The notes under the pieces are model-generated. The model did no database searches and was not told where the DNA came from. It worked only from the letters and a program-made list of their open reading frames with translations. Shown here in pieces: positions 1,128 through 13,926 of a DNA stretch of 64,000 nt. Source of the stretch: Acidobacteriota bacterium (GTDB lineage Bacteria; Acidobacteriota; UBA890; WLXD01); NCBI GenBank assembly GCA_965248695.1, contig CBDFKD010000002.1, positions 1,120,001 through 1,184,000 on the forward strand, in the 5' to 3' direction. Numbering within the stretch: position 1 is the stretch's first letter; the number at the start of each line of letters is the position of its first letter. The position numbers and the translations under genes are program-made.

Positions 1128-1776
1128 CTGCGTCGGGTAGGTGCTCTACCGCCCACCATGGCTCGAACCGCTGCAGCTCTTCGGCGCCGAAGGGACCGGT
1201 TCCGACCGCGATCGTAAGGGCGTTGATCGCCTTGCCACAATCGATGTCGTGGCGCGTGTCACCGATCACGTAGAGCGCTTCGATGGCGTCTCCGTGTTGT
1301 GCCTCAGCCTGGCGCCGCGCCTCGCGAGCGATGTCGCGCCGGGCGATCCCGTGGTCCGCGAAGGCGCCCCAGGCGAAGTAATCCAGGATCGCATGATGCC
1401 CCAGCTTCAGCCTCGCACCGGCCTCGAGATTTCCTGTCAGGAGAGCGTTCTCGAAGTCGTCGCGCGCCGCGACCGCCTGCAGTATCTCGACCACGTTCGG
1501 GTGGATGAAGCCGTTGGTGCGACGCTCCAACCATTCGGGCAACAGCTCGACGTAGCGACCGAGCAACGACGCCGCCAGCTCGGCGGAATACTCTCGACAC
1601 AGCACATCCAGGATCGCGTCCTTAGCGATCCTCCCGTCCGTCATTCCGGCCGGGCTCATGCTGTTGACGTCGACCGGGCGCCCGTATTCCTCGGCGAGCG
1701 CCTGCACCCATGCGTGCATGCCGGCGCGATCGGTGTTCAGCAGCGTCCCGTCGATGTCCCACAGCAGGACCTTCAT
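1096..1776 (-). CDS. HAD-superfamily hydrolase
   Basis: MKVLLWDIDGTLL (motif I), LLTGN, VIGDTRHDI; ATG overlaps the stop of the upstream peptidase. Confidence 0.9.
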   Translation of the reverse strand: MKVLLWDIDGTLLNTDRAGMHAWVQALAEEYGRPVDVNSMSPAGMTDGRIAKDAILDVLCREYSAELAASLLGRYVELLPEWLERRTNGFIHPNVVEILQAVAARDDFENALLTGNLEAGARLKLGHHAILDYFAWGAFADHGIARRDIAREARRQAEAQHGDAIEALYVIGDTRHDIDCGKAINALTIAVGTGPFGAEELQRFEPWWAVEHLPDAATFLARVASA

Positions 1777-3884
1777 CCGTCTTCGGACGCGACCTCGGTG
1801 GTTTCGGGGGCTTCCTTCGCCGGACGGTCCGCCGGGCTCCATTCGTTGCCGAGGACGTGATCCTGCATCCAGCGAATCTCCTCCACGTCGCGGCGTCGCT
1901 GGTGGCGCGGCTCGCGGAACCCGTGCGGCTCGCGCGGGAAACGCATGTAGCGGACCGGTGCCTTGCCGATGTCCTTGAGCGCGGTGAAGAACATCATGCT
2001 TTGTTGCTCGGTGTCGGTCAGGTCGTTCATCCCGTGAATGAGCAGGGTCGGCGTCGTGACGTTGGTGGCATGAGTGAGCGCTGACTGGTCGCGCCACCCC
2101 TCTGGGTTGTCCCACGGCGTGCCGCCGATGTGCCACAGGCGGACGTCGTTGTTGAACCCGGGTCCGTACTCGGACGTCCAGTCGTAGACCCCGGCGCCAA
2201 TGCTGGCGGCCTTGAAGCGCTCGGTGTGGGTGATCGTCCAGCCGCCGAGGATGCCGCCGTAGCTCCAGCCACGCACTCCCATGCGCTCCGGGTCGGCGAT
2301 GCCCTGCTCGATGAGCGCGTCCACACCGGTCATCAGATCCTGGAAGTCGCCCATGCCGATGCCGTCACCGCGGGTGAAGGTATTGCCCTCGCGCAGGTAG
2401 TCGTCGTAACAGCACGACCCGCGCACGTTAGGGGAAAGGGCGATCCACCCCAGTCCGCCGTAGACGTGGTACATGGCGCGGAAGCTGTTCGAGAACACAC
2501 CTGCCGGACCACCGTGGATGTTGAGCATCAACGGTAGGGCCGTTCCCTCGGTGTAGCCGGGCGGCAGGTGCAGCAGCCCTTCGATCTCCATGCCGTCGTG
2601 GCTCTCCCATTGAAAGAGCCGCATATCGGCCAGCAGCAGATCCTCTAGCTGGGGGTTGGCGTCGGTCAGCCGCAGAGGCTCGAAGTTCTCCACCGTGCCG
2701 ACGAACAGATCGGTCGGCGAGTCGAAATCGGTGTAGCCGTACACGAAGCGGGTGCGATCGGCGGAAAACGACAGGCTGCCGACGACCCCGTCGAGGTTCG
2801 TGATCTGCTCCACGTCGCCAGATTCGACCTCGAGTCGGTAGACGTTCCAGCGCGTTCCCTCGGTGCCGGCGAAGAGCACATAGCGACCGTCCGGGGTCCA
2901 CGATGGGCTGCGGATCTCGCCGTCGAAGGAACCCGAGATCTTGCGGTGCTCGGCGAGCTCGGCGTCCATCATCCAGAGCTTGGTGTTGCGGTTCATCCAG
3001 CCACTGTCGTCAGCAGCGCGGTAGAGGAACTGTGAGCTGTTCGGGGCCCACAGCACGCCGCCCTCGGGAGCGTGGTTGTCGGTCAGGCGCGTCTTCTCGC
3101 CGCTCGTCAGGTCGAGCACGAACAGCTCGGTCTTGTCGGCGTCGTTGCGTCGATTCGAATAGCGGGCCGCCATTGCCGCCAACTTGCCGTCGGGCGACGG
3201 ATCGAAGCTGCTGATCAGGAACTTCTCCTCGGTCAGCTGCTCCTCTTCCTTCGATTCGAGGTCGAACGCCCAGAGGTTGGACCATTGACCCTGGTTCTGG
3301 CCGTTGGGGCCCTCGTCGACGAAGATCGGATCGTCGCCCTTGCCCATCTCCTTGATTTCGTCCTCGGCGCGCGCGTCGTCGGCGACGAAGAAGATGCGGC
3401 TGGAATCAGGTGACCAGACGTAGCTACCGACCGACGTCGCGTGCTTGGTCAGCGCGACAGCTTCGCCGCCGCGCGTGCGCATCAGGAACAGTTGTTGTTT
3501 CGGGCCGGCACCGGGCGCGGGTGGCGACTGCTCGCCGTCATCGCCAACGCTGCGCTTGAACGTCAGGTACTGGCCATCGGGCGAGAACTTGAAGTCGCTG
3601 CCTCCGGCCTCGCCGAGGTACTGGAACGGGTCGCCGCCCATCGCCGACACCATGTACGCCTTGGTCTCGTACTTGTTGTCGTCCCAGGTAAGCGTGCGCT
3701 GCGTGTACAGCACCCACTCACCGTCGGGTGACATGATCCCGTTGCCCACGTTGACCACGTCGAGCGCATCGTCGACGGTCATCGGGCGGGGTTGCTGAGA
3801 GGCGGATTCAGTATCCTGTGCGCCAGCCACGGTGGATGCGAGCAGGGCTACGAGAACGGCGGAGAGAGTCTTGCGCATGGTCAT
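1773..3884 (-). CDS. S9 family peptidase (dipeptidyl aminopeptidase/acylaminoacyl peptidase-like)
   Basis: Signal peptide, SPDG beta-propeller repeats, IHGGP, nucleophile GWSYGG, C-terminal EPHG. Confidence 0.92.
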   Translation of the reverse strand: MTMRKTLSAVLVALLASTVAGAQDTESASQQPRPMTVDDALDVVNVGNGIMSPDGEWVLYTQRTLTWDDNKYETKAYMVSAMGGDPFQYLGEAGGSDFKFSPDGQYLTFKRSVGDDGEQSPPAPGAGPKQQLFLMRTRGGEAVALTKHATSVGSYVWSPDSSRIFFVADDARAEDEIKEMGKGDDPIFVDEGPNGQNQGQWSNLWAFDLESKEEEQLTEEKFLISSFDPSPDGKLAAMAARYSNRRNDADKTELFVLDLTSGEKTRLTDNHAPEGGVLWAPNSSQFLYRAADDSGWMNRNTKLWMMDAELAEHRKISGSFDGEIRSPSWTPDGRYVLFAGTEGTRWNVYRLEVESGDVEQITNLDGVVGSLSFSADRTRFVYGYTDFDSPTDLFVGTVENFEPLRLTDANPQLEDLLLADMRLFQWESHDGMEIEGLLHLPPGYTEGTALPLMLNIHGGPAGVFSNSFRAMYHVYGGLGWIALSPNVRGSCCYDDYLREGNTFTRGDGIGMGDFQDLMTGVDALIEQGIADPERMGVRGWSYGGILGGWTITHTERFKAASIGAGVYDWTSEYGPGFNNDVRLWHIGGTPWDNPEGWRDQSALTHATNVTTPTLLIHGMNDLTDTEQQSMMFFTALKDIGKAPVRYMRFPREPHGFREPRHQRRRDVEEIRWMQDHVLGNEWSPADRPAKEAPETTEVASEDG

Positions 3885-4077
3885 GGCTTCAGGTTGAAGT
3901 TGAGGGACTCGAACGCGAGCGTTGGCGGCCCAAAGTTATCATCGCGGCGGCACCGGGTTCCGGGTCGGAGGCCAGCGAAGCGCAAAGGGCTGGGGCCGGA
4001 AGGCGTCGCGGGCGTCTGACGCGCCCACCGTGGCGCGTTGTCTACACGAATCGAAGGATGTGAATCGAGGCATATGG

Positions 4078-5805
4078 ATGCGAACCGAGCGTAGGGTTTG
4101 TGGAGGCGTGCTGGCGGCCATCTTGGTGCTCGGAGCCGGCGGACCCGCGTGGTCGGCTCAGTCGACAGGCGCCACTCTCGTGATGCGGGGCGGGCGGGTT
4201 GCTACGGTCGACGCTGATTTCAGCATCGTCGAGGCGATCGCCGTAAGCGGACACGAGGTCATTGCCGTAGGTAGCAATGCCGACATCGCCCCTTTCGTCG
4301 GCCCGGACACCGAGGTGATCGAGCTCGACGGGCGACTGGCGATTCCGGGATTCATCGAGAGCCACGGGCACTACCTGAGCCTGGGTCGCTCCAAGATGAT
4401 CCTCGATCTGAACACAGTGACCTCCTGGCAGCAGATCATCGACATGGTCGAAGCGGCCGCTCGACTAGCTGAACCCGGCGAGTGGATCTTCGGACGCGGC
4501 TGGCATCAGGAGAAGTGGAGCTCGACGCCGACGCCGAACGTCGACGGCGTGCCGCTGCACGACGGTTTGTCGGAGGTCACGCCGGATAATCCCGTTGTTC
4601 TAGGGCATGCCAGCGGCCACGCGGCGTTCGCCAATGAGCTGGCGATGGCGCTGGCGGGCATCGACGCCGACACTGCCGATCCTGATGGTGGCACCATCGT
4701 GCGGGATGCCCGCGGACGCGCCACGGGCTTGATGCGGGAACGAGCTCAAGGCCTGGTCAACAGGGCCTCGAGGGCCTCCGATGGCGACCGAACGGACGCA
4801 GATCGCGACGAGGAGTTCCGTCGCCAGGTCGCGCTCGCCGGTGCCGACGCCCTCAGCAAGGGGGTGACGAGCTTTCAGGATGCCGGCGCCGGGTTTGGCA
4901 CCATCGACCGGCTCAGGGCGATGGCGGCCGCAGGCGAGCTGCCGATCCGCTTGTACGTGATGGTTCGCGGTCACTCGAATGAGGAGATGGACCGAATGTT
5001 GCCGCGGTACCGGATTATTCCGCAGGGCAACGACTTCCTCGCTGTGCGCTCTATCAAGCGCCAGATCGACGGCGCTCTCGGCTCCCACGGTGCGTGGTTG
5101 CTCGAGGACTACGTCGACATCGACAACGCGGGTCTGGTGCTCGAGCCTGTGGAAGACATCGAGGGCACGGCGGCGGTGGCCGCAAAGCACGGTTTCCAGG
5201 TCAACACCCATGCCATAGGCGATCGGGCCAATCGCGAGGTGCTCGATCTCTACGAACGCATGTTTGACGCTTCCGGCTTGAACGGTCCCGACCTGCGCTG
5301 GCGCATCGAGCATGCGCAGCACATCCACCCCGACGACATCCCGCGCTTCGGCAGCCTTGGCGTGATCGCTGCAATGCAGGGCGTCCATGCCACCTCCGAC
5401 GGACCATGGATTCCACTGCGGCTGGGTGACGAACGTGCCCGGTCCCGCACCTACGTGTGGCGCGACCTGATCGACTCCGGCGCCCTGATTGCGAACGGCA
5501 CCGACGTGCCGGTCGAGAACATCGATCCGATACCCAGTTACTACGCTTCGGTCGCCCGCATCCTGGCCGACGGTTCGACCTTCTACCCGGAGCAGAACAT
5601 GACGCGCGAGGAGGCATTGCGCTCTTACACCATCAACAGCGCCTACGCCGCCTTCGAGGAACACCTCAAGGGATCGCTGGAACCCGGCAAGCTGGCCGAC
5701 ATCGTGGTTCTCTCGCAGGATATTCTGGAGATTCCCGCGGCAGAGATTCCGGCCACTCGGGTCGATCTGACAATCGTGGGCGGCGAGGTACGCTATCGGC
5801 GCTAG
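4078..5805 (+). CDS. Secreted amidohydrolase (amidohydrolase_3 / YtcJ-like)
   Basis: PGFIESHGH, HAIGDRAN, RIEHAQ, GTDVPV, GSLEPGKLADIVVL; start estimated at ATG 4078. Confidence 0.9.
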   Translation: MRTERRVCGGVLAAILVLGAGGPAWSAQSTGATLVMRGGRVATVDADFSIVEAIAVSGHEVIAVGSNADIAPFVGPDTEVIELDGRLAIPGFIESHGHYLSLGRSKMILDLNTVTSWQQIIDMVEAAARLAEPGEWIFGRGWHQEKWSSTPTPNVDGVPLHDGLSEVTPDNPVVLGHASGHAAFANELAMALAGIDADTADPDGGTIVRDARGRATGLMRERAQGLVNRASRASDGDRTDADRDEEFRRQVALAGADALSKGVTSFQDAGAGFGTIDRLRAMAAAGELPIRLYVMVRGHSNEEMDRMLPRYRIIPQGNDFLAVRSIKRQIDGALGSHGAWLLEDYVDIDNAGLVLEPVEDIEGTAAVAAKHGFQVNTHAIGDRANREVLDLYERMFDASGLNGPDLRWRIEHAQHIHPDDIPRFGSLGVIAAMQGVHATSDGPWIPLRLGDERARSRTYVWRDLIDSGALIANGTDVPVENIDPIPSYYASVARILADGSTFYPEQNMTREEALRSYTINSAYAAFEEHLKGSLEPGKLADIVVLSQDILEIPAAEIPATRVDLTIVGGEVRYRR

Positions 5806-6417: not shown

Positions 6418-7350
6418 ATGAGGACTCGTCTTCGGATTGCGTGCCTGCTCGCGCTCGTCGCGCCCGGCCTCTGGCCGAGCGCTGCGGCGGCGCAGATCTT
6501 CGCCAAGGGAGCGCGCACCGAGTTCATCTCCGGCTTCGGCATCCGCGCGTTTACCAGCTTCCACCGCCTGGGAACGCTGCTAGACGACGGCGAGGAGGTC
6601 GCAAATCCCGCAGGCCGGCGGGTGCTCGTCCGCACCACACCGATCGTCATCGTCCACGGGCTTCGGCAAGGGCTGTCGGCGATCGGTGTGTTTCCTCTGG
6701 TGGACAAGTCAGTCGATCTCGACGCTCCCGATCGCCCGGGAACCAGCTCTGGAGTCGGCCTGGGTGACGCCACGTTCCTGTTGAAGTGGCGGTTGCTGAA
6801 GAAAGATCGCGGGCGCGGGACCTTCCAGCTCGCGGCGGAGCTCGGGATCAAGGTGCCCACCGGCAGCACCTCCCTTCGTGATCGAGACGGCGGCTTGCTA
6901 CCGCGCGGCTTGCAGCGTGGCACCGGATCCTGGGATCCGACTGGCGATCTCGTAATGACGTTCGTACCACGTAGCGGCCGCTGGATCTTCGGTGCCGATC
7001 TGGGTTTCACTGCCACTACCGACGCCGACGGATTCAATCTCGGCGATCGGTTGGCGTACGACGGTGTGGTCAAGTACCGCCTCCGGCCGAACCGCTATCC
7101 CGGCCGCGATCTGTTCCTCATGGTCGAGCTCAACGGGCGGCAGCAGGGCGGGGCACGCGCCGGTGGCGTCAAGCTCGACGACACGGGCGGCCATGTTCTG
7201 TACGTGTCGCCCGGGCTGCAGTACCTGTTGCGGCGAAACTTGATCTTGGAGGGCGGCGTTCAGCTGCCGGTGCTGCGCGACGTCCGCGGCACCCAGCTGG
7301 TCTCCGACTACAACGTGCTCTTGGGAATCCGCTACATCATCCTGCCTTGA
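6418..7350 (+). CDS. Outer-membrane beta-barrel 'transporter' (MetA-pathway/phenol-degradation-like family)
   Basis: Signal peptide, GLGDATFLLKWR, IKVPTG, LQRGTGSWD, TGGHVLYVSPGLQY, alternating beta strands. Confidence 0.75.
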   Translation: MRTRLRIACLLALVAPGLWPSAAAAQIFAKGARTEFISGFGIRAFTSFHRLGTLLDDGEEVANPAGRRVLVRTTPIVIVHGLRQGLSAIGVFPLVDKSVDLDAPDRPGTSSGVGLGDATFLLKWRLLKKDRGRGTFQLAAELGIKVPTGSTSLRDRDGGLLPRGLQRGTGSWDPTGDLVMTFVPRSGRWIFGADLGFTATTDADGFNLGDRLAYDGVVKYRLRPNRYPGRDLFLMVELNGRQQGGARAGGVKLDDTGGHVLYVSPGLQYLLRRNLILEGGVQLPVLRDVRGTQLVSDYNVLLGIRYIILP

Positions 7351-7399
7351 ATCAGATCCTGCCTTGAGCCACCGAAGCGACGAATCAAGAGGAGGTCCC

Positions 7400-7963
7400 A
7401 TGCGACGCGACCCGATCGGAACGAGCCCGATGACCCGCCGGCAGATGGTCCAAGTGCTGGTGCCGGTCTTCGTCACCCCGACGCTGGTCATGGGTGCCAG
7501 GACGGCAAGCATGGTCGAGGCGGAGGTCGGTGTATCGGGCATGTACTGAGGGCTTTGAGCCTACGGGGTCACCCGATCCCTACAGCGCCTGGATGGCGTT
7601 GCCGAAGCCAAGGAAAACCTGGAGCGCGAGCTGGTTGCGGTCACGTTCGAGAGCGGAGCACGAGTGGACCCTGTGGAGCTCGAGGAGGCGGTGCGGCGTG
7701 TCGACTTCACACCGACCCACGTGAGGCTCTGGATCGAGGGAACGCTGCTCGTTGAAAGCTCGCCCGATTCGACCGCGCCCACAGTGTGGCTCGTTGCTGA
7801 AGCCAGCGGCCAGCGGTTCGAGCTGCGGGAGAAGGCCGACGCTGACGCCGTGCTGGCCGCCCTGCGCGACCGGACGGGAGCTCGGTCCCGGGTCTGGGGC
7901 CTGGCGGTGCGATCGGAAGGCAAGCCGGAGGTGATTCTTCACGTCGAGGGGTACGACGATTAG
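7400..7963 (+). CDS. HMA-domain protein with Tat-like leader and two in-frame TGA codons (GMY-U-GL-U-A); candidate double-selenocysteine protein, 187 aa
   Basis: RBS AAGAGGAGG, ATG 7400, TRRQMV leader; TGA at 7547-7549 and 7556-7558 sit at the two Cys positions of GMxCxxC; frame continues AYGVTRSLQRLDGVAEAKENLERELVAVTF...VDPVELEEAVRRVDF into ORF 7664..7963. Confidence 0.82.
7559..7601 (+). promoter_or_regulatory. Candidate bacterial SECIS hairpin(s) downstream of the UGA codons
   Basis: CAGCGCC-UGGAU-GGCGUUG 7-bp stem (7583-7601), loop 31 nt after the second UGA; CGGG-GUCA-CCCG or GGGGUC-ACCC-GAUCCC (7564-7580) closer to the first UGA; paired by eye only. Confidence 0.5.
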
Positions 7964-7991: not shown

Positions 7992-8978
7992 GTGTCGCTG
8001 TGGATCTTCGTCGGGGGGAGCCAGCACGTTCCGCTCGGCGGACTGGCCCTCGAGGCCGAGTGGGGCGCCCCGGGTTCGCAGCCCGGGCAGATGGACCATC
8101 CCATGGGCGTGGCGCTGGGCCCGGACGGTCGTGTCTACGTCGCCGATACCGGAAACGAGCGCATTCAGATCTTCACGTCAGACGGGCGAGTGCTGGGAAA
8201 CTGGCCGCTGGGGAGCGGAGCACGACCGGTGGCACTGGCCGTGCGCGCCGACGACGCGATTCTGGTTGCCGATTACACCGGCGACCAGGTCCTTGTCGTT
8301 GATCAGCGCGGCCAGGTGGTGCAACGCTGGGGCGGCACCGGGTCCGCGCCTGGCAGCTTTCGGGGGCCGAGCGGGCTGGCGCTGACACCTCGAGGCGCCG
8401 TGATCGTGGTCGAGTTCATGGGGCAGAGGGTGCAGGAGCTCGATGCAGAGGGCCACTTCCTGCGCTTCATCGATGGTGGTCACCCGGCGTCAGCGCACGT
8501 CGGAAAGCGGCAGGCCGCCGAGTCGAGCGATGATTCTCGAATGACCATGGGCGCGGCGCTCGGCAACCCCCATGGGCTATTCGTGTTTCCCTCCGACGTC
8601 GCGGCGGCGGCCGACGGCACGCTCTACGTCACCAACACACATGCCTACGAGGTGCTGGTGCTCGAGGCCGGCGGCGCGTTGCGCCGCTCCTGGGGGGCCA
8701 AGGGACATGGTCACGGCGACTGGGAGGTCCCGGTCGGTATCTCGGTGGACGAATCCGGCAATGTCTACGTTGCCGACAGCGCCAACTTCCGAGTCCAGGC
8801 GCTCACCCCTGACGGACGCCCGTTGCTCAGCTCGCGAGCGAGCGAGCGCTGGTATCGGACAACGCGGCGCGTCTACTCGCCGACCGACGTGGCCATCGGG
8901 CCGGATGGTCGCCTATTCGTTGCTGATTTCGCGGCCTCGAAGATTCAGGTGTTCCGCCTCGAGCTCGAGCGCCGGTGA
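7992..8978 (+). CDS. NHL-repeat beta-propeller protein
   Basis: Repeated P.GVA..PDG.VYVADTGN.RIQ.F units; true start uncertain (frame open from 7935). Confidence 0.85.
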   Translation: MSLWIFVGGSQHVPLGGLALEAEWGAPGSQPGQMDHPMGVALGPDGRVYVADTGNERIQIFTSDGRVLGNWPLGSGARPVALAVRADDAILVADYTGDQVLVVDQRGQVVQRWGGTGSAPGSFRGPSGLALTPRGAVIVVEFMGQRVQELDAEGHFLRFIDGGHPASAHVGKRQAAESSDDSRMTMGAALGNPHGLFVFPSDVAAAADGTLYVTNTHAYEVLVLEAGGALRRSWGAKGHGHGDWEVPVGISVDESGNVYVADSANFRVQALTPDGRPLLSSRASERWYRTTRRVYSPTDVAIGPDGRLFVADFAASKIQVFRLELERR

Positions 8979-9168
8979 GCGGTTCGGATGCCAGCGGCAG
9001 TGCGATCAGCAACAATACAGACAACCGGCTCATATACCGTCCCTCCTGTTGTCGAACGTACATGACGATGCGGTCAGATCGCGGTATCGTGTCCAGTTGA
9101 CTCGCCGACAGGCCGCGAGTGACGATGCTTGCTTGCTCGGAACAGCATATCGAGCAACAACCCAGAGA

Positions 9169-10488
9169 ATGGCCATGCCAACGTATGCGCGCCCAGCCGG
9201 CTTCCGCCTGGGTACGGTGATCCTGGTTCTCATCGTGACGGCGGCCTGCGCCGTGTCTTCCGGTGACCCGGGCGACGCCAGCGCCTCGAGTGACGCGGTC
9301 ACGGTACTCGACGCGCCAAGATCGCTGACTCCCCCGACGGTCCTGCCGGGAAGCGGTGAAGCGAACCTTTTCGCCGTCGGCGAGCAGCTACACATGAGCT
9401 GGCTGGAGCCAGGACCCGACGACGCGTGGGCGCTGCGCTTTGCCACCTTGGGCGGCGAGACTTGGTCGGAGCCACGCACGGTGGCTAGCAGCAAGGGCTT
9501 CTTCGTCAACTGGGCCGACTTTCCCTCGATGATCGCTACGACGGATGGGACGCTGGTGGCCCACTGGCTCGAGCGCAGCGGACCGGGTACCTACGCCTAC
9601 GACGTCCGCCTGAGCCGTTCGATCGATGCGGGGGCGACCTGGTCGGATTCGTTCCTGCCGCATGAAGACGGCACCCAGACCGAGCACGGCTTCGTGTCCC
9701 TGGTACCGGAGCCTGACGGTGGTTTCAGCGCCGTCTGGCTCGACGGACGCAACTTCGCCTCGTCGGGCGGCGGGCACGGAGCTCCGGGGCCCGGCGCCGA
9801 AATGACGTTGCGATCGCGCCGCTACAGCGACAAGGGAGAGCCGCACCCGGAGCAACTGCTCGATTCCCGCATCTGCGACTGCTGTCAGACGTCGGCAGCC
9901 TATGTCGGGGACACGCTCATGGTTGCCTATCGCGACCGATCCTCCGACGAGGTGCGTGACATATCGGTGGTCGGCCGCGGTGCGAACGGCTGGAGCGATC
10001 CGGTCGCCGTTGGCGACGACCAATGGATGATTCCTGGCTGTCCCGTCAACGGGCCGGTGGTGGCAGCGAGCGGCGATCTGGCCGCGGTCGCCTGGTTCGG
10101 CCTGGTGGACGGCACGCCGGAAGTGAAGGTCACGTTCACGAGTGACCGCGGGACGAGCTTCGATACGCCGGTGTTGATCGAACGCGGCACGACGGAAGCC
10201 GCCACGCTCGGCCGCGTCGATCTGGAGTGGATCGACGCCGGCACCGTCCTGGTCTCGTGGCTCACCAGCGTCGGCCCGGAGGGAGAGATCCGCTATCGAA
10301 CGGTCGACGTCGGCGGAGCCGCAGGGCCCGTGAGCGTCCTCGCGAATACCAGCCCGAGCCGATCCAGCGGTTTCCCACGCATGGCGCGCGTCGGTGACCG
10401 CGTGGTTTTCGTATGGAGGCTGCCGGACGAGCCGGCGACGCTTGAGATGGCAGCGATTCCGCTGCGCGCGCCCAACACCGGCGACTGA
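9169..10488 (+). CDS. BNR/Asp-box (sialidase-like) beta-propeller protein, probably lipoprotein, with Cys motifs
   Basis: Hydrophobic leader ending TAAC, VNWADFPS, SIDAGATWS and SDRGTSF Asp-boxes, ICDCCQT, GCPVNGP, SGFPRM. Confidence 0.8.
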   Translation: MAMPTYARPAGFRLGTVILVLIVTAACAVSSGDPGDASASSDAVTVLDAPRSLTPPTVLPGSGEANLFAVGEQLHMSWLEPGPDDAWALRFATLGGETWSEPRTVASSKGFFVNWADFPSMIATTDGTLVAHWLERSGPGTYAYDVRLSRSIDAGATWSDSFLPHEDGTQTEHGFVSLVPEPDGGFSAVWLDGRNFASSGGGHGAPGPGAEMTLRSRRYSDKGEPHPEQLLDSRICDCCQTSAAYVGDTLMVAYRDRSSDEVRDISVVGRGANGWSDPVAVGDDQWMIPGCPVNGPVVAASGDLAAVAWFGLVDGTPEVKVTFTSDRGTSFDTPVLIERGTTEAATLGRVDLEWIDAGTVLVSWLTSVGPEGEIRYRTVDVGGAAGPVSVLANTSPSRSSGFPRMARVGDRVVFVWRLPDEPATLEMAAIPLRAPNTGD

Positions 10489-11065: not shown

Positions 11066-12523
11066 ATGGAAATGAACGAACACAACCGTCGATTGTTCAT
11101 CAAGGGCGGGGCGCTCTCCGCTGCTGGAGTGCTCTCCGCCCACCAAGCGCTCGGGAAACCCGAGAACCCCGCAGCGCTGAGCGCGAGCGAACGGGCGGAC
11201 TCTCTCGGCCCAGCGCACGCCTATGACCGCGAGCTTTCCGGGACGGTGCAGACCCCCGACGTGGCCAAGCTGCCGTTCACGCGCGACGGCGACGTCAAGG
11301 TGTTCCACCTCGTCGCCGAAGTGTGTCAGCGATCGTTCCTTCCGGGCTGGCGTTTCGATACCTGGGGCTACAACGGCTCGACCCCGGGACCGACGATCGA
11401 GGTCGAAGAGGGCGATCGGGTGCGCTTCGTGGTCGAGAATCGGCTGCCCGAGATCACCTCGATGCACTGGCACGGTCTCGAGGTGCCGATCGACATGGAC
11501 GGCGTGCCGGGCGTCACCCAAGACCCGATCGCTCCCGGCGAGACCTTCGTCTACGAGTTCCAGCTGCACCAGCACGGCACGTTCTTCTATCACTCGCACA
11601 TGGCGATGCAGGAGATGATGGGGATGGTCGGGTTGTTCATCGTCCATCCACGCGAGCCCTACACGCCTGCGGTCGACCGGGACTTCGGTTTTGTGCTGCA
11701 GGAGTGGTCCGTCCTGCCCGACAACACCGTGCCGAACTCGCTGGCCATGGAGTTCAACTGGCTGACGCTCAATGGTCGATCCGGCCCTCACACCACACCG
11801 CTGATCGTGCGGCGCGGCGACCGGGTGCGGCTGCGGTTCGTGAACCTGGGGATGGATCACCACCCGATGCACCTGCACGGCCACACGTGGGTGACGACCG
11901 GGACCGAGGGCGGGCGCGTTCCGGAGGCCGCGTGGACGCCTGGAAACACCGAGCTGGTCGGGGTGGCGCAGGCACGCGACGTGGAGTTCGTCGCTAACAA
12001 TCCGGGCGACTGGATGCTCCACTGCCACCTACCGCACCACATGATGAACCACATGGCGTCGATGGTCGGTCCGATGTCGCCGATGGAGGGCATGGGCGCC
12101 GGCGGTGAGATGGACGCCGGGTCAGGGGTCGCCAGCGGAGCCGCACTCTCGGACGACAACGGCCCGTCGATGGGCCGTGCAATCGGCCTTGCCGCCATGC
12201 GGAAGCGAGCAGTTACCAACCTGCCGATGGCCAGCCGCTCGCCGCAGGATCAGACCGCCGGGCAGCCTGCCGCCGCCGTGCAGCATCACGCTGCCGCCGA
12301 CGCGCGCACGGTCCCCGGTTTTCCGCAGGACCATTTCATGGCGATGGACGCGGGCGTTGCCAAGCCGGAGACTCACGGCATGCGGCCGACGTGGTCCGGC
12401 GGGGTCATGGGCATGATGACCATCCTCCGCGTGCTCGACGGGGAGCTGTACGACGAGGTACAGGAGCTGCGAGCGACCGCCGATCACGCCGCCGAAACGG
12501 CGCCGGGTGGAGGGGCACGATGA
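11066..12523 (+). CDS. Tat-exported two-domain multicopper oxidase with Met-rich C-terminus
   Basis: NRRLFIK Tat motif; HWHG, YHSH, HPMHLHGH, HCHLPHHM copper motifs. Confidence 0.92.
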   Translation: MEMNEHNRRLFIKGGALSAAGVLSAHQALGKPENPAALSASERADSLGPAHAYDRELSGTVQTPDVAKLPFTRDGDVKVFHLVAEVCQRSFLPGWRFDTWGYNGSTPGPTIEVEEGDRVRFVVENRLPEITSMHWHGLEVPIDMDGVPGVTQDPIAPGETFVYEFQLHQHGTFFYHSHMAMQEMMGMVGLFIVHPREPYTPAVDRDFGFVLQEWSVLPDNTVPNSLAMEFNWLTLNGRSGPHTTPLIVRRGDRVRLRFVNLGMDHHPMHLHGHTWVTTGTEGGRVPEAAWTPGNTELVGVAQARDVEFVANNPGDWMLHCHLPHHMMNHMASMVGPMSPMEGMGAGGEMDAGSGVASGAALSDDNGPSMGRAIGLAAMRKRAVTNLPMASRSPQDQTAGQPAAAVQHHAAADARTVPGFPQDHFMAMDAGVAKPETHGMRPTWSGGVMGMMTILRVLDGELYDEVQELRATADHAAETAPGGGAR

Positions 12524-13926
12524 GCCGCTCGAAGCCAGGCATCGGTACGTCGGTCGCGTTCGCACTCATCGTTCTGGGCTCGACGGTGAGCTCGGTAGCT
12601 GCCCAGGGGAGTGCTCGAACCGATCCGGGGTCGCTCCGTCCGCTGACCCGCGAAGCCAGCACGCTTGAACAGGTCGAGGACAGCGCTCTCGACCTGGGGC
12701 GGCTCGAGGCTCTGGCGCTCGCCAACAACCCCACCCTGATTCAAGCTGCGTCCGGTGTCGACGCTGCTACCGGGCATCGCGATCAGGCAGGTCGCCATCC
12801 CAACCCTCACCTGGTGGTAGCTGGTGAAGAGCTGTCGTTCGGTCGATTCGGCGATGGGAGTCAATACGCACTGGTGATCGAGCAACCGCTGCTGATCGGC
12901 GGCAAGCGTCGCTCCCGCACGGCGCTCGCGGCACGTGCTGAAGACCAAGCGCGCATCGAGGCTGGCGCTCAGCGCCAAAGGGTGCTCACGCACGTACGGC
13001 AGCTCTTTTATCGTGTATTGGCGGCCGTCGAGCTGGTCGGGCTCCGCACGCAACTGGTTGAGGTCGCGGATGAAGCGGTGGAGATCACGAACCAACTGGT
13101 CAACGTGGGCGCGGCGGCATTGCCGGACTCCCTGGAGGCCCGGATCGTGGCTCGGCGCGCCGGGTTGGATCTGTCCAGGGCGCGGATCGACCTGGTTGCT
13201 GCGCGGCGGCAGCTCGCGGCGGTCGTGAGTGTACCTTCCGTAGTGGCGGTGCGGCTCGTGGGTTCGCTTTCCGAGGTCCCCGACCTGAACCACGATGCGG
13301 TCCTGGCAGATCTCTATGATCGCAGTCCCGAGCTCGATTTCTCGCGTGCCGAGCTGTCACGTGCAGAGGCCCTGATCCTCAACGCCCGGGCCGAGGGCAA
13401 GTCCGACCTGTCGCTGATGGCGGGTGTCGGCTGGAACGCCGATCGGTTCGAGGTGGATCTCGCGCGGCGCGGCTGGCAGGGCACGCTTGGCGTGAAGCTC
13501 GAGCTGCCGGTATTTGACCGCAATCAGGGCGAGATCGTTGCGGCGCTGGCCTTCAAGGAGGTCGCTATCGCCGCCCTGCGGCGCATCGAGCTGTCGATCG
13601 GTTCACGCCTGGCGAGGGTGTACGCCGAGTATGCCGGCGCCCGCGACGTGGTCCAGATCTACGAGGACGAGATTGTCCCGGCGGCCGAGGAAGCTCATGC
13701 GCTGTATCGAGCAAGCTATGAACGGATGGCGGCTTCGTATCCGCAGGTGTTGCTCGCCGAACGCAGCGTGCTCGAAGCCCGGGCCGCGCGTATCCAGGGG
13801 CTGGATGAGATGTGGCGCGCGGCGGTGACGATGCAGGGACTGCTGCTGACCGACGGGCTCTCCCAGCCCGGAACGATCGTCGAGCCGTCGATGTCGACGC
13901 CCGCGGGCGTCGGTCACGAGCAGTGA
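12520..13926 (+). CDS. TolC-family (CzcC/CusC-like) outer membrane efflux protein
   Basis: ALANNPTL, HPNP, LELPVFDRNQGEI; ATGA overlap with the oxidase stop. Confidence 0.88.
   Translation: MSRSKPGIGTSVAFALIVLGSTVSSVAAQGSARTDPGSLRPLTREASTLEQVEDSALDLGRLEALALANNPTLIQAASGVDAATGHRDQAGRHPNPHLVVAGEELSFGRFGDGSQYALVIEQPLLIGGKRRSRTALAARAEDQARIEAGAQRQRVLTHVRQLFYRVLAAVELVGLRTQLVEVADEAVEITNQLVNVGAAALPDSLEARIVARRAGLDLSRARIDLVAARRQLAAVVSVPSVVAVRLVGSLSEVPDLNHDAVLADLYDRSPELDFSRAELSRAEALILNARAEGKSDLSLMAGVGWNADRFEVDLARRGWQGTLGVKLELPVFDRNQGEIVAALAFKEVAIAALRRIELSIGSRLARVYAEYAGARDVVQIYEDEIVPAAEEAHALYRASYERMAASYPQVLLAERSVLEARAARIQGLDEMWRAAVTMQGLLLTDGLSQPGTIVEPSMSTPAGVGHEQ

Follow-up and report, generated by a model that had tools for sequence, protein, structure and literature searches.

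Conserved in-frame UGA codons at both metal-ligand positions of an HMA protein: a candidate UxxU selenoprotein family in Acidobacteriota

The TGA pair and its conservation

In this study, we asked whether a reading frame interrupted by two TGA codons in an Acidobacteriota bacterium encodes a complete HMA-type metal-binding protein with selenocysteine (Sec, U) at both metal ligands. The frame lies at 7400-7963 of a 64,000-nt stretch of the forward strand (the window; contig CBDFKD010000002.1, positions 1,120,001 to 1,184,000, assembly GCA_965248695.1), and coordinates given without a contig follow the numbering of the window. The original prediction, made from the letters alone, had read it as a single frame with a ribosome-binding site, an ATG at 7400, TGA at codons 50 and 53 and no cysteine (Cys). 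A mechanical list of open reading frames (ORFs) placed 7364..7549 and 7664..7963 in the same frame, and translation of 7400-7963 with TGA as U gave the motif G-M-Y-U-G-L-U-A-Y-G with 0 Cys codons, so this part of the prediction was borne out by the sequence and its translation. The elements of the gene are as follows:

7400-7963, + strand: full coding sequence (CDS) of the candidate HMA-OB selenoprotein, 187 codons and a TAG stop (7961-7963), with two in-frame TGA codons; orthologs have the same frame
7387-7395, + strand: Shine-Dalgarno-like AAGAGGAGG, read directly, 4 nt before ATG 7400
7547-7549, + strand: UGA-1, putative Sec50, first metal ligand, aligned with Cys of CxxC homologs
7556-7558, + strand: UGA-2, putative Sec53, second metal ligand, aligned with Cys of UxxC and CxxC homologs

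The Pfam HMA domain (PF00403) matched residues 45-100 with an E-value of 2.3e-10 (41.2 bits, cut-off 24.8), and the TGA codons fall on both CxxC ligand positions. The HMA ligand motif, G-M-x-C-x-x-C at the junction of loop 1 and helix 1, was thus found with UGA at both Cys positions. We regard the frame as almost certainly a real gene for an HMA protein with Sec at both ligands, a reading that is well supported but unproven; conservation, the Sec machinery of the genome, a series of homologs and RNA hairpins all support it. The fuller account seems to us quite probable: a 187-aa UxxU selenoprotein, recoded by SelB with the help of two hairpins, exported, carrying a soft-metal HMA site and belonging to a channel and propeller module. 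Both TGAs were reproduced with 0 differences in contigs of 4 public sequencing runs; these runs are one sample, probably the source of the assembly itself, so the agreement adds no independent support.

The genome contains the machinery that such a gene would need. The original prediction had named this as a point to check, and the tRNA-Sec(UCA) (70.2 bits with the Rfam model, also called SeC by ARAGORN), SelA (521.8 bits), SelB (330.4 bits) and SelD (319.1 bits) were all found, each protein above its curated cut-off. A formate dehydrogenase alpha subunit (FdhA, 1315 bits) with one in-frame TGA provided a benchmark selenoprotein of the same genome. TGA is the commonest stop codon (1028/1935 ATG-started ORFs of at least 400 aa) and release factor 2 is present (464.7 bits). 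Because TGA ends most long ORFs in a genome that keeps release factor 2, an alternative code in which TGA means tryptophan (W) or glycine is excluded. A second formate dehydrogenase-like gene (C2:253932-254681, minus strand) also has one in-frame TGA, with a hairpin about 12 nt after it.

To find homologs, we ran a six-frame search of 41 related genomes, which returned genes with two TGAs in G002, G004 and G008; all three read G-M-T-U-G-L-U-A-Y-G, and the frame downstream is conserved. A profile built from these three sequences and that of the window was then run against 401 genomes of the phylum (E <= 1e-8). It matched 44 places in 39 genomes, 18 with two TGAs, 5 with one and 21 with none, some of the last being N-termini of P-type ATPases. 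UxxU was found in 17/17 inspected places with two TGAs and UxxC in 4/4 inspected places with one, G061 (two TGAs) and G125 (one TGA) lying outside the inspected set. Eight TGA-less places of the same architecture had CxxC, with ligand positions that align with those of the Sec forms. A scan of one genome per species added three orthologs (L088-L090), all U-G-L-U; L091 and L092 seem to repeat counted loci and were not counted again. The TGA pair was therefore kept at both ligand positions in 20/20 UxxU genes inspected in Acidobacteriota, across sequences 22-48% identical. SelA was found in 20/22 genomes with Sec forms and in 7/10 genomes with CxxC forms only. The general pattern of bacterial selenoproteins, a conserved in-frame UGA with Cys in some homologs, is present here, and the UxxU, UxxC and CxxC forms with conserved TGA are among those for which the original prediction had suggested a search. 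G002 has two SelA matches with identical scores (C6:10376-11734 and 191379-192737), a duplication or an assembly repeat.

These results bear directly on whether the gene is simply broken, that is, whether the TGAs are nonsense codons that leave only a 49-aa peptide and/or a 99-aa ORF starting from GTG 7664. Gene callers do treat it so, and the databases hold only a C-terminal fragment of the window gene (P0008) and similar fragments of its relatives. The TGAs, however, stand exactly at both ligands in all 20 genes, with no other stop, in agreement with the earlier argument that chance nonsense mutations at both ligands are unlikely; moreover, the parts before and after the TGAs together give one confident HMA fold in the predicted structure. 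Neither a lack of TGA-keeping relatives nor relaxed selection downstream was seen: dN/dS (the ratio of nonsynonymous to synonymous substitution rates) 3' of the second TGA was 0.24-0.97, below 1 in 15/15 pairs and 0.26 in the closest pair, although this is weak support because dS is near saturation. A broken gene can hardly be the explanation.

The same interruption appears to have hidden a whole protein family from annotation. In public protein sets, some close relatives occur as C-terminal fragments of 99-118 aa, while others, low-GC members among them, are 181-193 aa long and carry W at the two ligands; the latter are most readily explained as TGA=W calls, and one database cluster holds both versions. 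A word-indexed protein search gave 3 matches, all C-terminal fragments. Ten clusters were looked up and one had a name, 'mercuric ion binding protein' (JGI/IMG), which is a CxxC form. Annotation pipelines will keep missing the family because no NCBIfam model reaches its cut-off. In another database protein, P0005 (177 aa), an N-terminus with a MerR-type helix-turn-helix is linked in frame to what follows the TGAs in a close homolog; chimerism, rearrangement and an error of gene calling are all conceivable.

Hairpins after the UGA pair and their proposed role in decoding

We folded the 96 nt from the first UGA, and two adjacent hairpins were found in every UxxU gene folded (n=17). In the window they are:

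7565-7580, + strand: hairpin A, 6-bp stem and 4-nt loop, loop 24 nt after the U of UGA-1, -9.2 kcal/mol; candidate Sec insertion sequence (SECIS) for UGA-1
7583-7601, + strand: hairpin B, 7-bp stem and loop UGGAU, loop 34 nt after UGA-2, -11.8 kcal/mol; candidate SECIS for UGA-2

Folding energies at the two sites, measured over fixed segments, were:

UxxU, 17 genes: A -4.3 to -14.6 kcal/mol; B -8.9 to -14.0 kcal/mol
UxxC, 4 genes: A -7.8 to -10.1 kcal/mol; B -0.4 to -3.3 kcal/mol
CxxC, 8 genes: A -0.6 to -6.5 kcal/mol; B 0 to -7.5 kcal/mol

Both hairpins were present in 17/17 UxxU genes, only the one at the A position in 4/4 UxxC genes, and both sites were weak in 8/8 CxxC genes. Hairpin B thus occurred in 17/17 genes with a second UGA and in 0/12 genes without one (UxxC and CxxC together). 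A stability profile was calculated with a 25-nt segment slid over 130 positions of 16 UxxU genes (that of G008, cut short by the end of its contig, was left aside). The six positions of greatest stability lay at +30 to +36 (about -11) and at +12 to +18 (about -9), over a background of about -4 to -6, so that B is the most stable site of the gene and A the second. In the UxxC genes the only peak was at +6 to +12, and the CxxC genes were least structured at +9 to +36.

We further examined covariation in an ungapped 84-column alignment of the 17 UxxU genes with 13 base pairs. The results showed that 89.6% of cells were paired, compared with 35-47% in slid-partner controls; compensatory changes on both sides occurred in 7/13 pairs, and 0/500 shuffles matched the observed covariation score. 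In helix A, whose register is common to most clades, 5/6 pairs showed a compensatory change. Helix B had 95.8% paired cells, with 4 invariant and 2 covarying pairs; the invariant pairs include four-fold-degenerate third positions of arginine and glycine codons that are variable in the CxxC forms. The loop of hairpin B has an invariant GG, which is not so in hairpin A. SECIS-like stem-loops shortly 3' of the UGA, as expected of selenoproteins in general, are therefore present as A and B, with covariation. The fold of the whole region was not significant (z-score -0.43), the signal lying only in the single hairpins across homologs, and an Rfam scan gave chance-level matches only.

These findings suggest one hairpin per UGA. 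SelB with Sec-tRNA(Sec) would recode UGA-50 and UGA-53, guided by the two adjacent stem-loops within the CDS, most likely one for each UGA; A would be the candidate partner of UGA-1 and B that of UGA-2, and selenium would then be incorporated at positions 50 and 53. A further-reaching claim is that each of two Sec codons 9 nt apart has its own tandem SECIS within the CDS (the number of hairpins equalling that of UGAs), and that the protein carries metal on a diselenolate site within an uncharacterised periplasmic module, one that comprises the outer-membrane channel, the HMA-OB protein and the NHL propeller (see below) and is widespread in Acidobacteriota. We hold this combined claim tentatively, its chance falling just short of even. 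If true, the hairpin-per-UGA rule would be undescribed for bacterial UxxU proteins and contrary to the single SECIS that, in the accessible portions of a recent paper (Front Microbiol 2026, PMC13582414), is proposed to serve both UGAs of UXXU hydrogenases. Among the papers listed in our literature searches, two-SECIS arrangements appeared only for eukaryotic SELENOP-type mRNAs.

The same selenoprotein might instead use a single SECIS (B or A) for both UGAs, the other hairpin acting as a spacer, pause site or stabiliser. The hydrogenase proposal favours such an arrangement, as do the invariant GG loop found in hairpin B only, the lack of a loop G in hairpin A of the window and the distance of B from UGA-2 (34 nt, compared with 22 nt in FdhA). 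However, UxxC genes carry a hairpin at A while lacking one at B, indicating that UGA-1 needs no hairpin beyond the one at A. In addition, B appears only together with a second UGA, compensatory changes affect both helices, and an unrelated UxxU redoxin of the same genome, folded as a single sequence, also has two tandem hairpins. We consider a single SECIS unlikely, though by no means far-fetched. The redoxin just mentioned is AhpC/TSA-like with a U-P-K-U motif (C2:808075, minus strand); in the same single-sequence fold its second hairpin has a GUC loop like that of the FdhA SECIS, 24 nt after its UGA-2.

One or both UGAs could also be read as Cys or another standard residue, by a tRNA-ReC-like tRNA with SelB or by near-cognate read-through, so that the mature protein would be partly or wholly CxxC. 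The hydrogenase paper (PMC13582414), in its accessible portions, reports tRNA-ReC-like genes as enriched in genomes with UXXU motifs, and ARAGORN called a second SelC-like gene in our genome (C2:4678307-4678404). This copy, however, scored 44.9 bits against a cut-off of 47. Its identity to the real gene is confined to the 3' three-quarters, starting with the anticodon arm; both acceptor stem and D arm are degenerate, and the discriminator is a G like that of tRNA-Sec; tRNA-ReC carries U73. Relatives of the genus (G001-G004) hold 2-5 such 3' copies per genome, and we therefore read them as duplicated 3' fragments rather than genes. Otherwise, the Cys-type tRNAs of the genome were limited to the normal GCA tRNA and an ARAGORN call of 94 nt that folds poorly. 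No tRNA-ReC was thus found in the genome, the second SelC-like copy looking like a 3' fragment duplicate, and insertion of Cys or another standard residue is very improbable. The 94-nt call, 'tRNA-Cys(aca)' at C2:3177552-3177645, has acceptor-stem mismatches and a long unpaired extra arm and is probably false. Elements integrating at selC may have left the 3' copies behind as remnants of att sites.

Several observations weigh against Sec at both ligands or against its decoding through the two hairpins. SelA gave no match in two UxxU-bearing genomes, G101 and G317, in which tRNA-Sec and SelB score above cut-off. One pair had a dN/dS of 0.97, and dS was mostly near saturation. On the tree, the UxxU genes form one group (one change, support 81/90), so the 17 genes do not count as separate origins; the tree was built without G008, G398, G231, G339, G124, G061, G125 and L088-L090. 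With synonymous codons resampled, the fraction of resamples at least as stable as the gene was 0.001-0.21 for B and 0.008-0.61 for A; the peptide sequence and GC-rich codons already favour moderate folds, and this null sets the hairpins apart from expectation only in part. The loop of hairpin A in the window is ACCC, without G, while other clades have a G there, and a G at loop position 1 or 2 is described as universal in the hydrogenase SECIS set (PMC13582414, accessible portions). Finally, the B loop lies 34 nt from UGA-2, compared with +22 for the GUC loop of the FdhA SECIS of the same genome (11-nt spacer, 8-bp stem). The displacement of hairpin B may have its reason in hairpin A, with which a SECIS at the canonical distance from UGA-2 would overlap.

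With their 0, 1 and 2 hairpins, the CxxC, UxxC and UxxU genes amount to a natural experiment in the decoding of close UGAs by SelB. The hydrogenase paper (PMC13582414), as far as its accessible text goes, leaves open the decoding of closely spaced UGAs, and a reporter test would need no more than 55 nt.

Protein architecture and relation to known metal-binding families

We predicted the structure of the full-length protein with AlphaFold2 (AF2) from a 27-row family alignment. The mean confidence (predicted local distance difference test, pLDDT) was 88.0, and each 10-residue block from residue 41 on scored 88-98. The protein has three parts:

7400-7513, + strand: predicted signal peptide, about residues 1-38, by inspection (charged n-region, hydrophobic core); pLDDT 53-69 for residues 1-40
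7517-7714, + strand: HMA domain, residues 40-105, PF00403, ferredoxin-like beta-alpha-beta-beta-alpha-beta; pLDDT 96-98
7715-7960, + strand: predicted C-terminal OB-like five-stranded barrel with one helix, residues 106-187, beta-beta-beta-alpha-beta-beta; pLDDT 88-97

The HMA elements in the model (strand 40-46, helix 51-62, strand 67-73, strand 78-83, helix 91-99 and a strand from 104 onward) follow the order of the PF00403 fold. In a Foldseek search this part matched CopZ (6ff2) with a template modelling (TM) score of 0.89 and a root-mean-square deviation of 1.5 A, and MerP (1osd) with a TM score of 0.83. The hidden HMA domain of the original prediction, with TGA at both ligands, is therefore supported by Pfam, AF2 and Foldseek alike, and the extra C-terminal domain of about 80 aa that it had proposed corresponds in the model to the OB-like barrel at residues 106-187. 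The last HMA strand runs on into this barrel. For a homolog, the C-terminal model (pLDDT 83.2) had only OB-fold proteins among its 50 best matches (SSB, PriB, RPA and the OB domains of LysRS and ExoVII), all weak (E from 2e-3, TM 0.4-0.64), and two C-terminal fragments scanned had no Pfam match. Besides the start Met, invariance across the family is confined to both ligand positions, the Gly that precedes the motif and one other Gly; because the invariant residues are so few, with no conserved Cys, His or Met in the OB domain, this domain has no obvious metal site.

The signal peptides of the orthologs end in A-x-A-Q. A twin arginine is present in 2/6 full-length orthologs (the window and G004) and absent from G002, G008, L088 and L090, which have ordinary signal peptides. 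Export by the twin-arginine translocation (Tat) pathway, as originally proposed, is thus not a feature of the family, and the product would be exported through an ordinary signal peptide. In the periplasm, the HMA domain would expose a pair of selenolates where helix 1 begins, at the ligand positions of CopZ and MerP, and this site would bind a soft metal ion, perhaps Cu(I)- or Hg(II)-like. The OB-like barrel probably docks the protein to its partners. A periplasmic diselenolate should bind soft metals more tightly than the thiolates of CopZ and MerP, which would be relevant to metal homeostasis in soil Acidobacteriota and possibly to metal capture.

The UxxU pair could alternatively be a redox centre (selenenylselenide/diselenol), making the protein a periplasmic oxidoreductase on an HMA scaffold. 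According to reviews, redox proteins with UxxC or CxxU make up the majority of bacterial selenoproteins; the structure of oxidised MerP has been solved (1osd), and in G200 a thioredoxin-reductase-like gene follows the homolog. Against this, the protein shares its fold and its motif (G-M-x-[CU]-x-x-[CU], where helix 1 begins) with CopZ, MerP and the metal-binding domains of ATPases, and no conserved thioredoxin-like partner was found in the module at the loci scanned. We consider a redox function improbable and prefer metal binding by the selenolate pair.

Sec at HMA ligand positions, including UxxU, is already known as a kind, and the HMA-OB proteins are a new unannotated family and architecture within it. 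The original prediction had described UxxU as rare and best known from SelL; the novelty that this implies is not supported: NCBIfam NF041115, 'UxxU_metal_bind, metal-binding (seleno)protein', describes UxxU in an HMA-type domain, and reviews of 2022 and 2026 list a UxxU HMA-type metal-binding selenoprotein in their accessible parts. The same parts list a UxxC cation-transporting ATPase (2022) and name it as a Sec-containing family (2026). NF045683 is a 'MerT/CopZ fusion-like heavy metal transport selenoprotein', and the Global Ocean Sampling (GOS) survey, in its accessible portion, lists a MerP selenoprotein. The present family may be among those given in the supplements to the reviews or to deep-Sep. 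For a UxxU 'putative mercuric reductase' the reviews cite the 2007 paper on the Olavius symbionts; neither 'mercuric reductase' nor 'UxxU' appears in its main text.

We then compared the window protein with each of these families. NF041115 shares the replacement of both HMA ligand cysteines by Sec and is, likewise, predicted by bioinformatics only. It is, however, a 74-position single-domain model, whereas the window protein has 187 aa with a signal peptide, an OB-like domain and a channel/propeller context; the window protein scored 32.0 bits with C for U, and 19.6 in six-frame translation, against the 95 required, and 10 family members scored at most 47.6. Because they are so far below the 95-bit cut-off, we treat the HMA-OB proteins as a separate family; 0/401 genomes of the phylum contained an NF041115 member above cut-off. 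MerP (TIGR02052; 1osd, 1afi) shares the signal peptide, the single periplasmic HMA domain and the GMxCxxC-type site, with the TM score given above, but the window protein scored 27.2 bits against 92.55, has Sec and the OB-like domain, and lacks adjacent merT, merA or merR. CopZ/Atx1-type proteins (NF033795; 6ff2) gave the best fold match and the best sub-threshold NCBIfam match (37.8 bits, cut-off 91), with the same ligand geometry; the window protein differs in its predicted export, its two domains and the lack of an adjacent ATPase. CopZ is cytoplasmic, has about 70 aa and has the CopA ATPase as its partner. NF045683 (14.8 bits of 375), the UxxC ATPase and the GOS MerP share Sec at HMA/Mer-type metal-ligand positions and are membrane proteins or single-Sec forms, the GOS MerP sequences standing outside the comparison. 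The UXXU Group 4 [NiFeSe] hydrogenases (PMC13582414, accessible portions) share two UGAs 9 nt apart in a metal-ligand CxxC motif; they are unrelated proteins for which one SECIS is proposed, whereas here the number of hairpins follows the number of UGAs. Membership in NF041115, MerP, CopZ and MerT_CopZ_Se was thus rejected, all scores being below cut-off. The emphasis that the original prediction had placed on mercury was likewise not upheld, with no mer genes adjacent and CopZ-type models scoring as well as MerP.

Small CopZ-like HMA frames with a single TGA were also seen in the phylum (G006:C6:36374-36586, G116:C4:32299-32508, G014:C5:33379-33594, G398:C3:955059-955271, G020:C257:8278-8493 and others). 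Several lie a few kb from the HMA-OB gene of the same genome, and they may be another Sec-containing HMA type.

Neighbouring genes and the putative module

The HMA-OB gene of the window stands in a row of genes on one strand, between a gene for an outer-membrane barrel and one for an NHL protein, with gaps of 49 and about 20-30 nt, followed by a BNR-like gene:

6418-7350, + strand: upstream outer-membrane beta-barrel, Phenol_MetA_deg family (Pfam PF13557, 47.2 bits)
7992-8978, + strand: downstream NHL-repeat six-bladed beta-propeller (Pfam NHL, 109.1 bits); start uncertain, TTG 7981 or GTG 7992
9202-10488, + strand: BNR-like propeller protein (Pfam BNR_2, 32.8 bits); its ORF, 8572-10488, overlaps the NHL gene, with homology from about residue 211

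The order barrel-selenoprotein-NHL is kept in G002 and G004. In G008, L088 and L090, too, the HMA-OB gene is preceded by a channel gene, with the NHL gene also retained in L090. Over 29 loci of Sec and Cys forms, one of which is a P-type ATPase locus and not a family member, a channel homolog was found at 19/29 and an NHL homolog at 11/29 within flanks of only about 1.5 kb. Homologs of the BNR-like gene were found close to the module in G008 and, in G398, immediately downstream of the HMA gene. Among 10 neighbouring ORFs of the window and 20 ORFs in 3 other loci, a Pfam scan found no merT, merA, merR or P-type ATPase families. The selenoprotein probably works in this conserved module with the outer-membrane channel and the NHL beta-propeller, and would hand metal either to or from them.

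A multicopper oxidase (11066-12523) and an OEP outer-membrane efflux protein (12391-13926) lie 3-6 kb downstream of the selenoprotein gene. A link to them is not conserved, both genes being absent from 20-kb regions around the G002 and G004 orthologs, a point that also weighs against the fuller account.

In G398 (C3, about 957.6-959.4 kb; L064/L108), a UxxU HMA-OB frame runs without a stop into a BNR-like propeller, giving about 672 aa, and could represent a fusion that arose naturally. In three genomes the module has a PD40-repeat S9 peptidase and/or an amidohydrolase as neighbour, which could be coincidental, such genes being abundant there. The sites are:

1773-3884, - strand, and 3922-5805, + strand, in the window
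L108:1674-4241, in G398
L109:4404-7832, in G200

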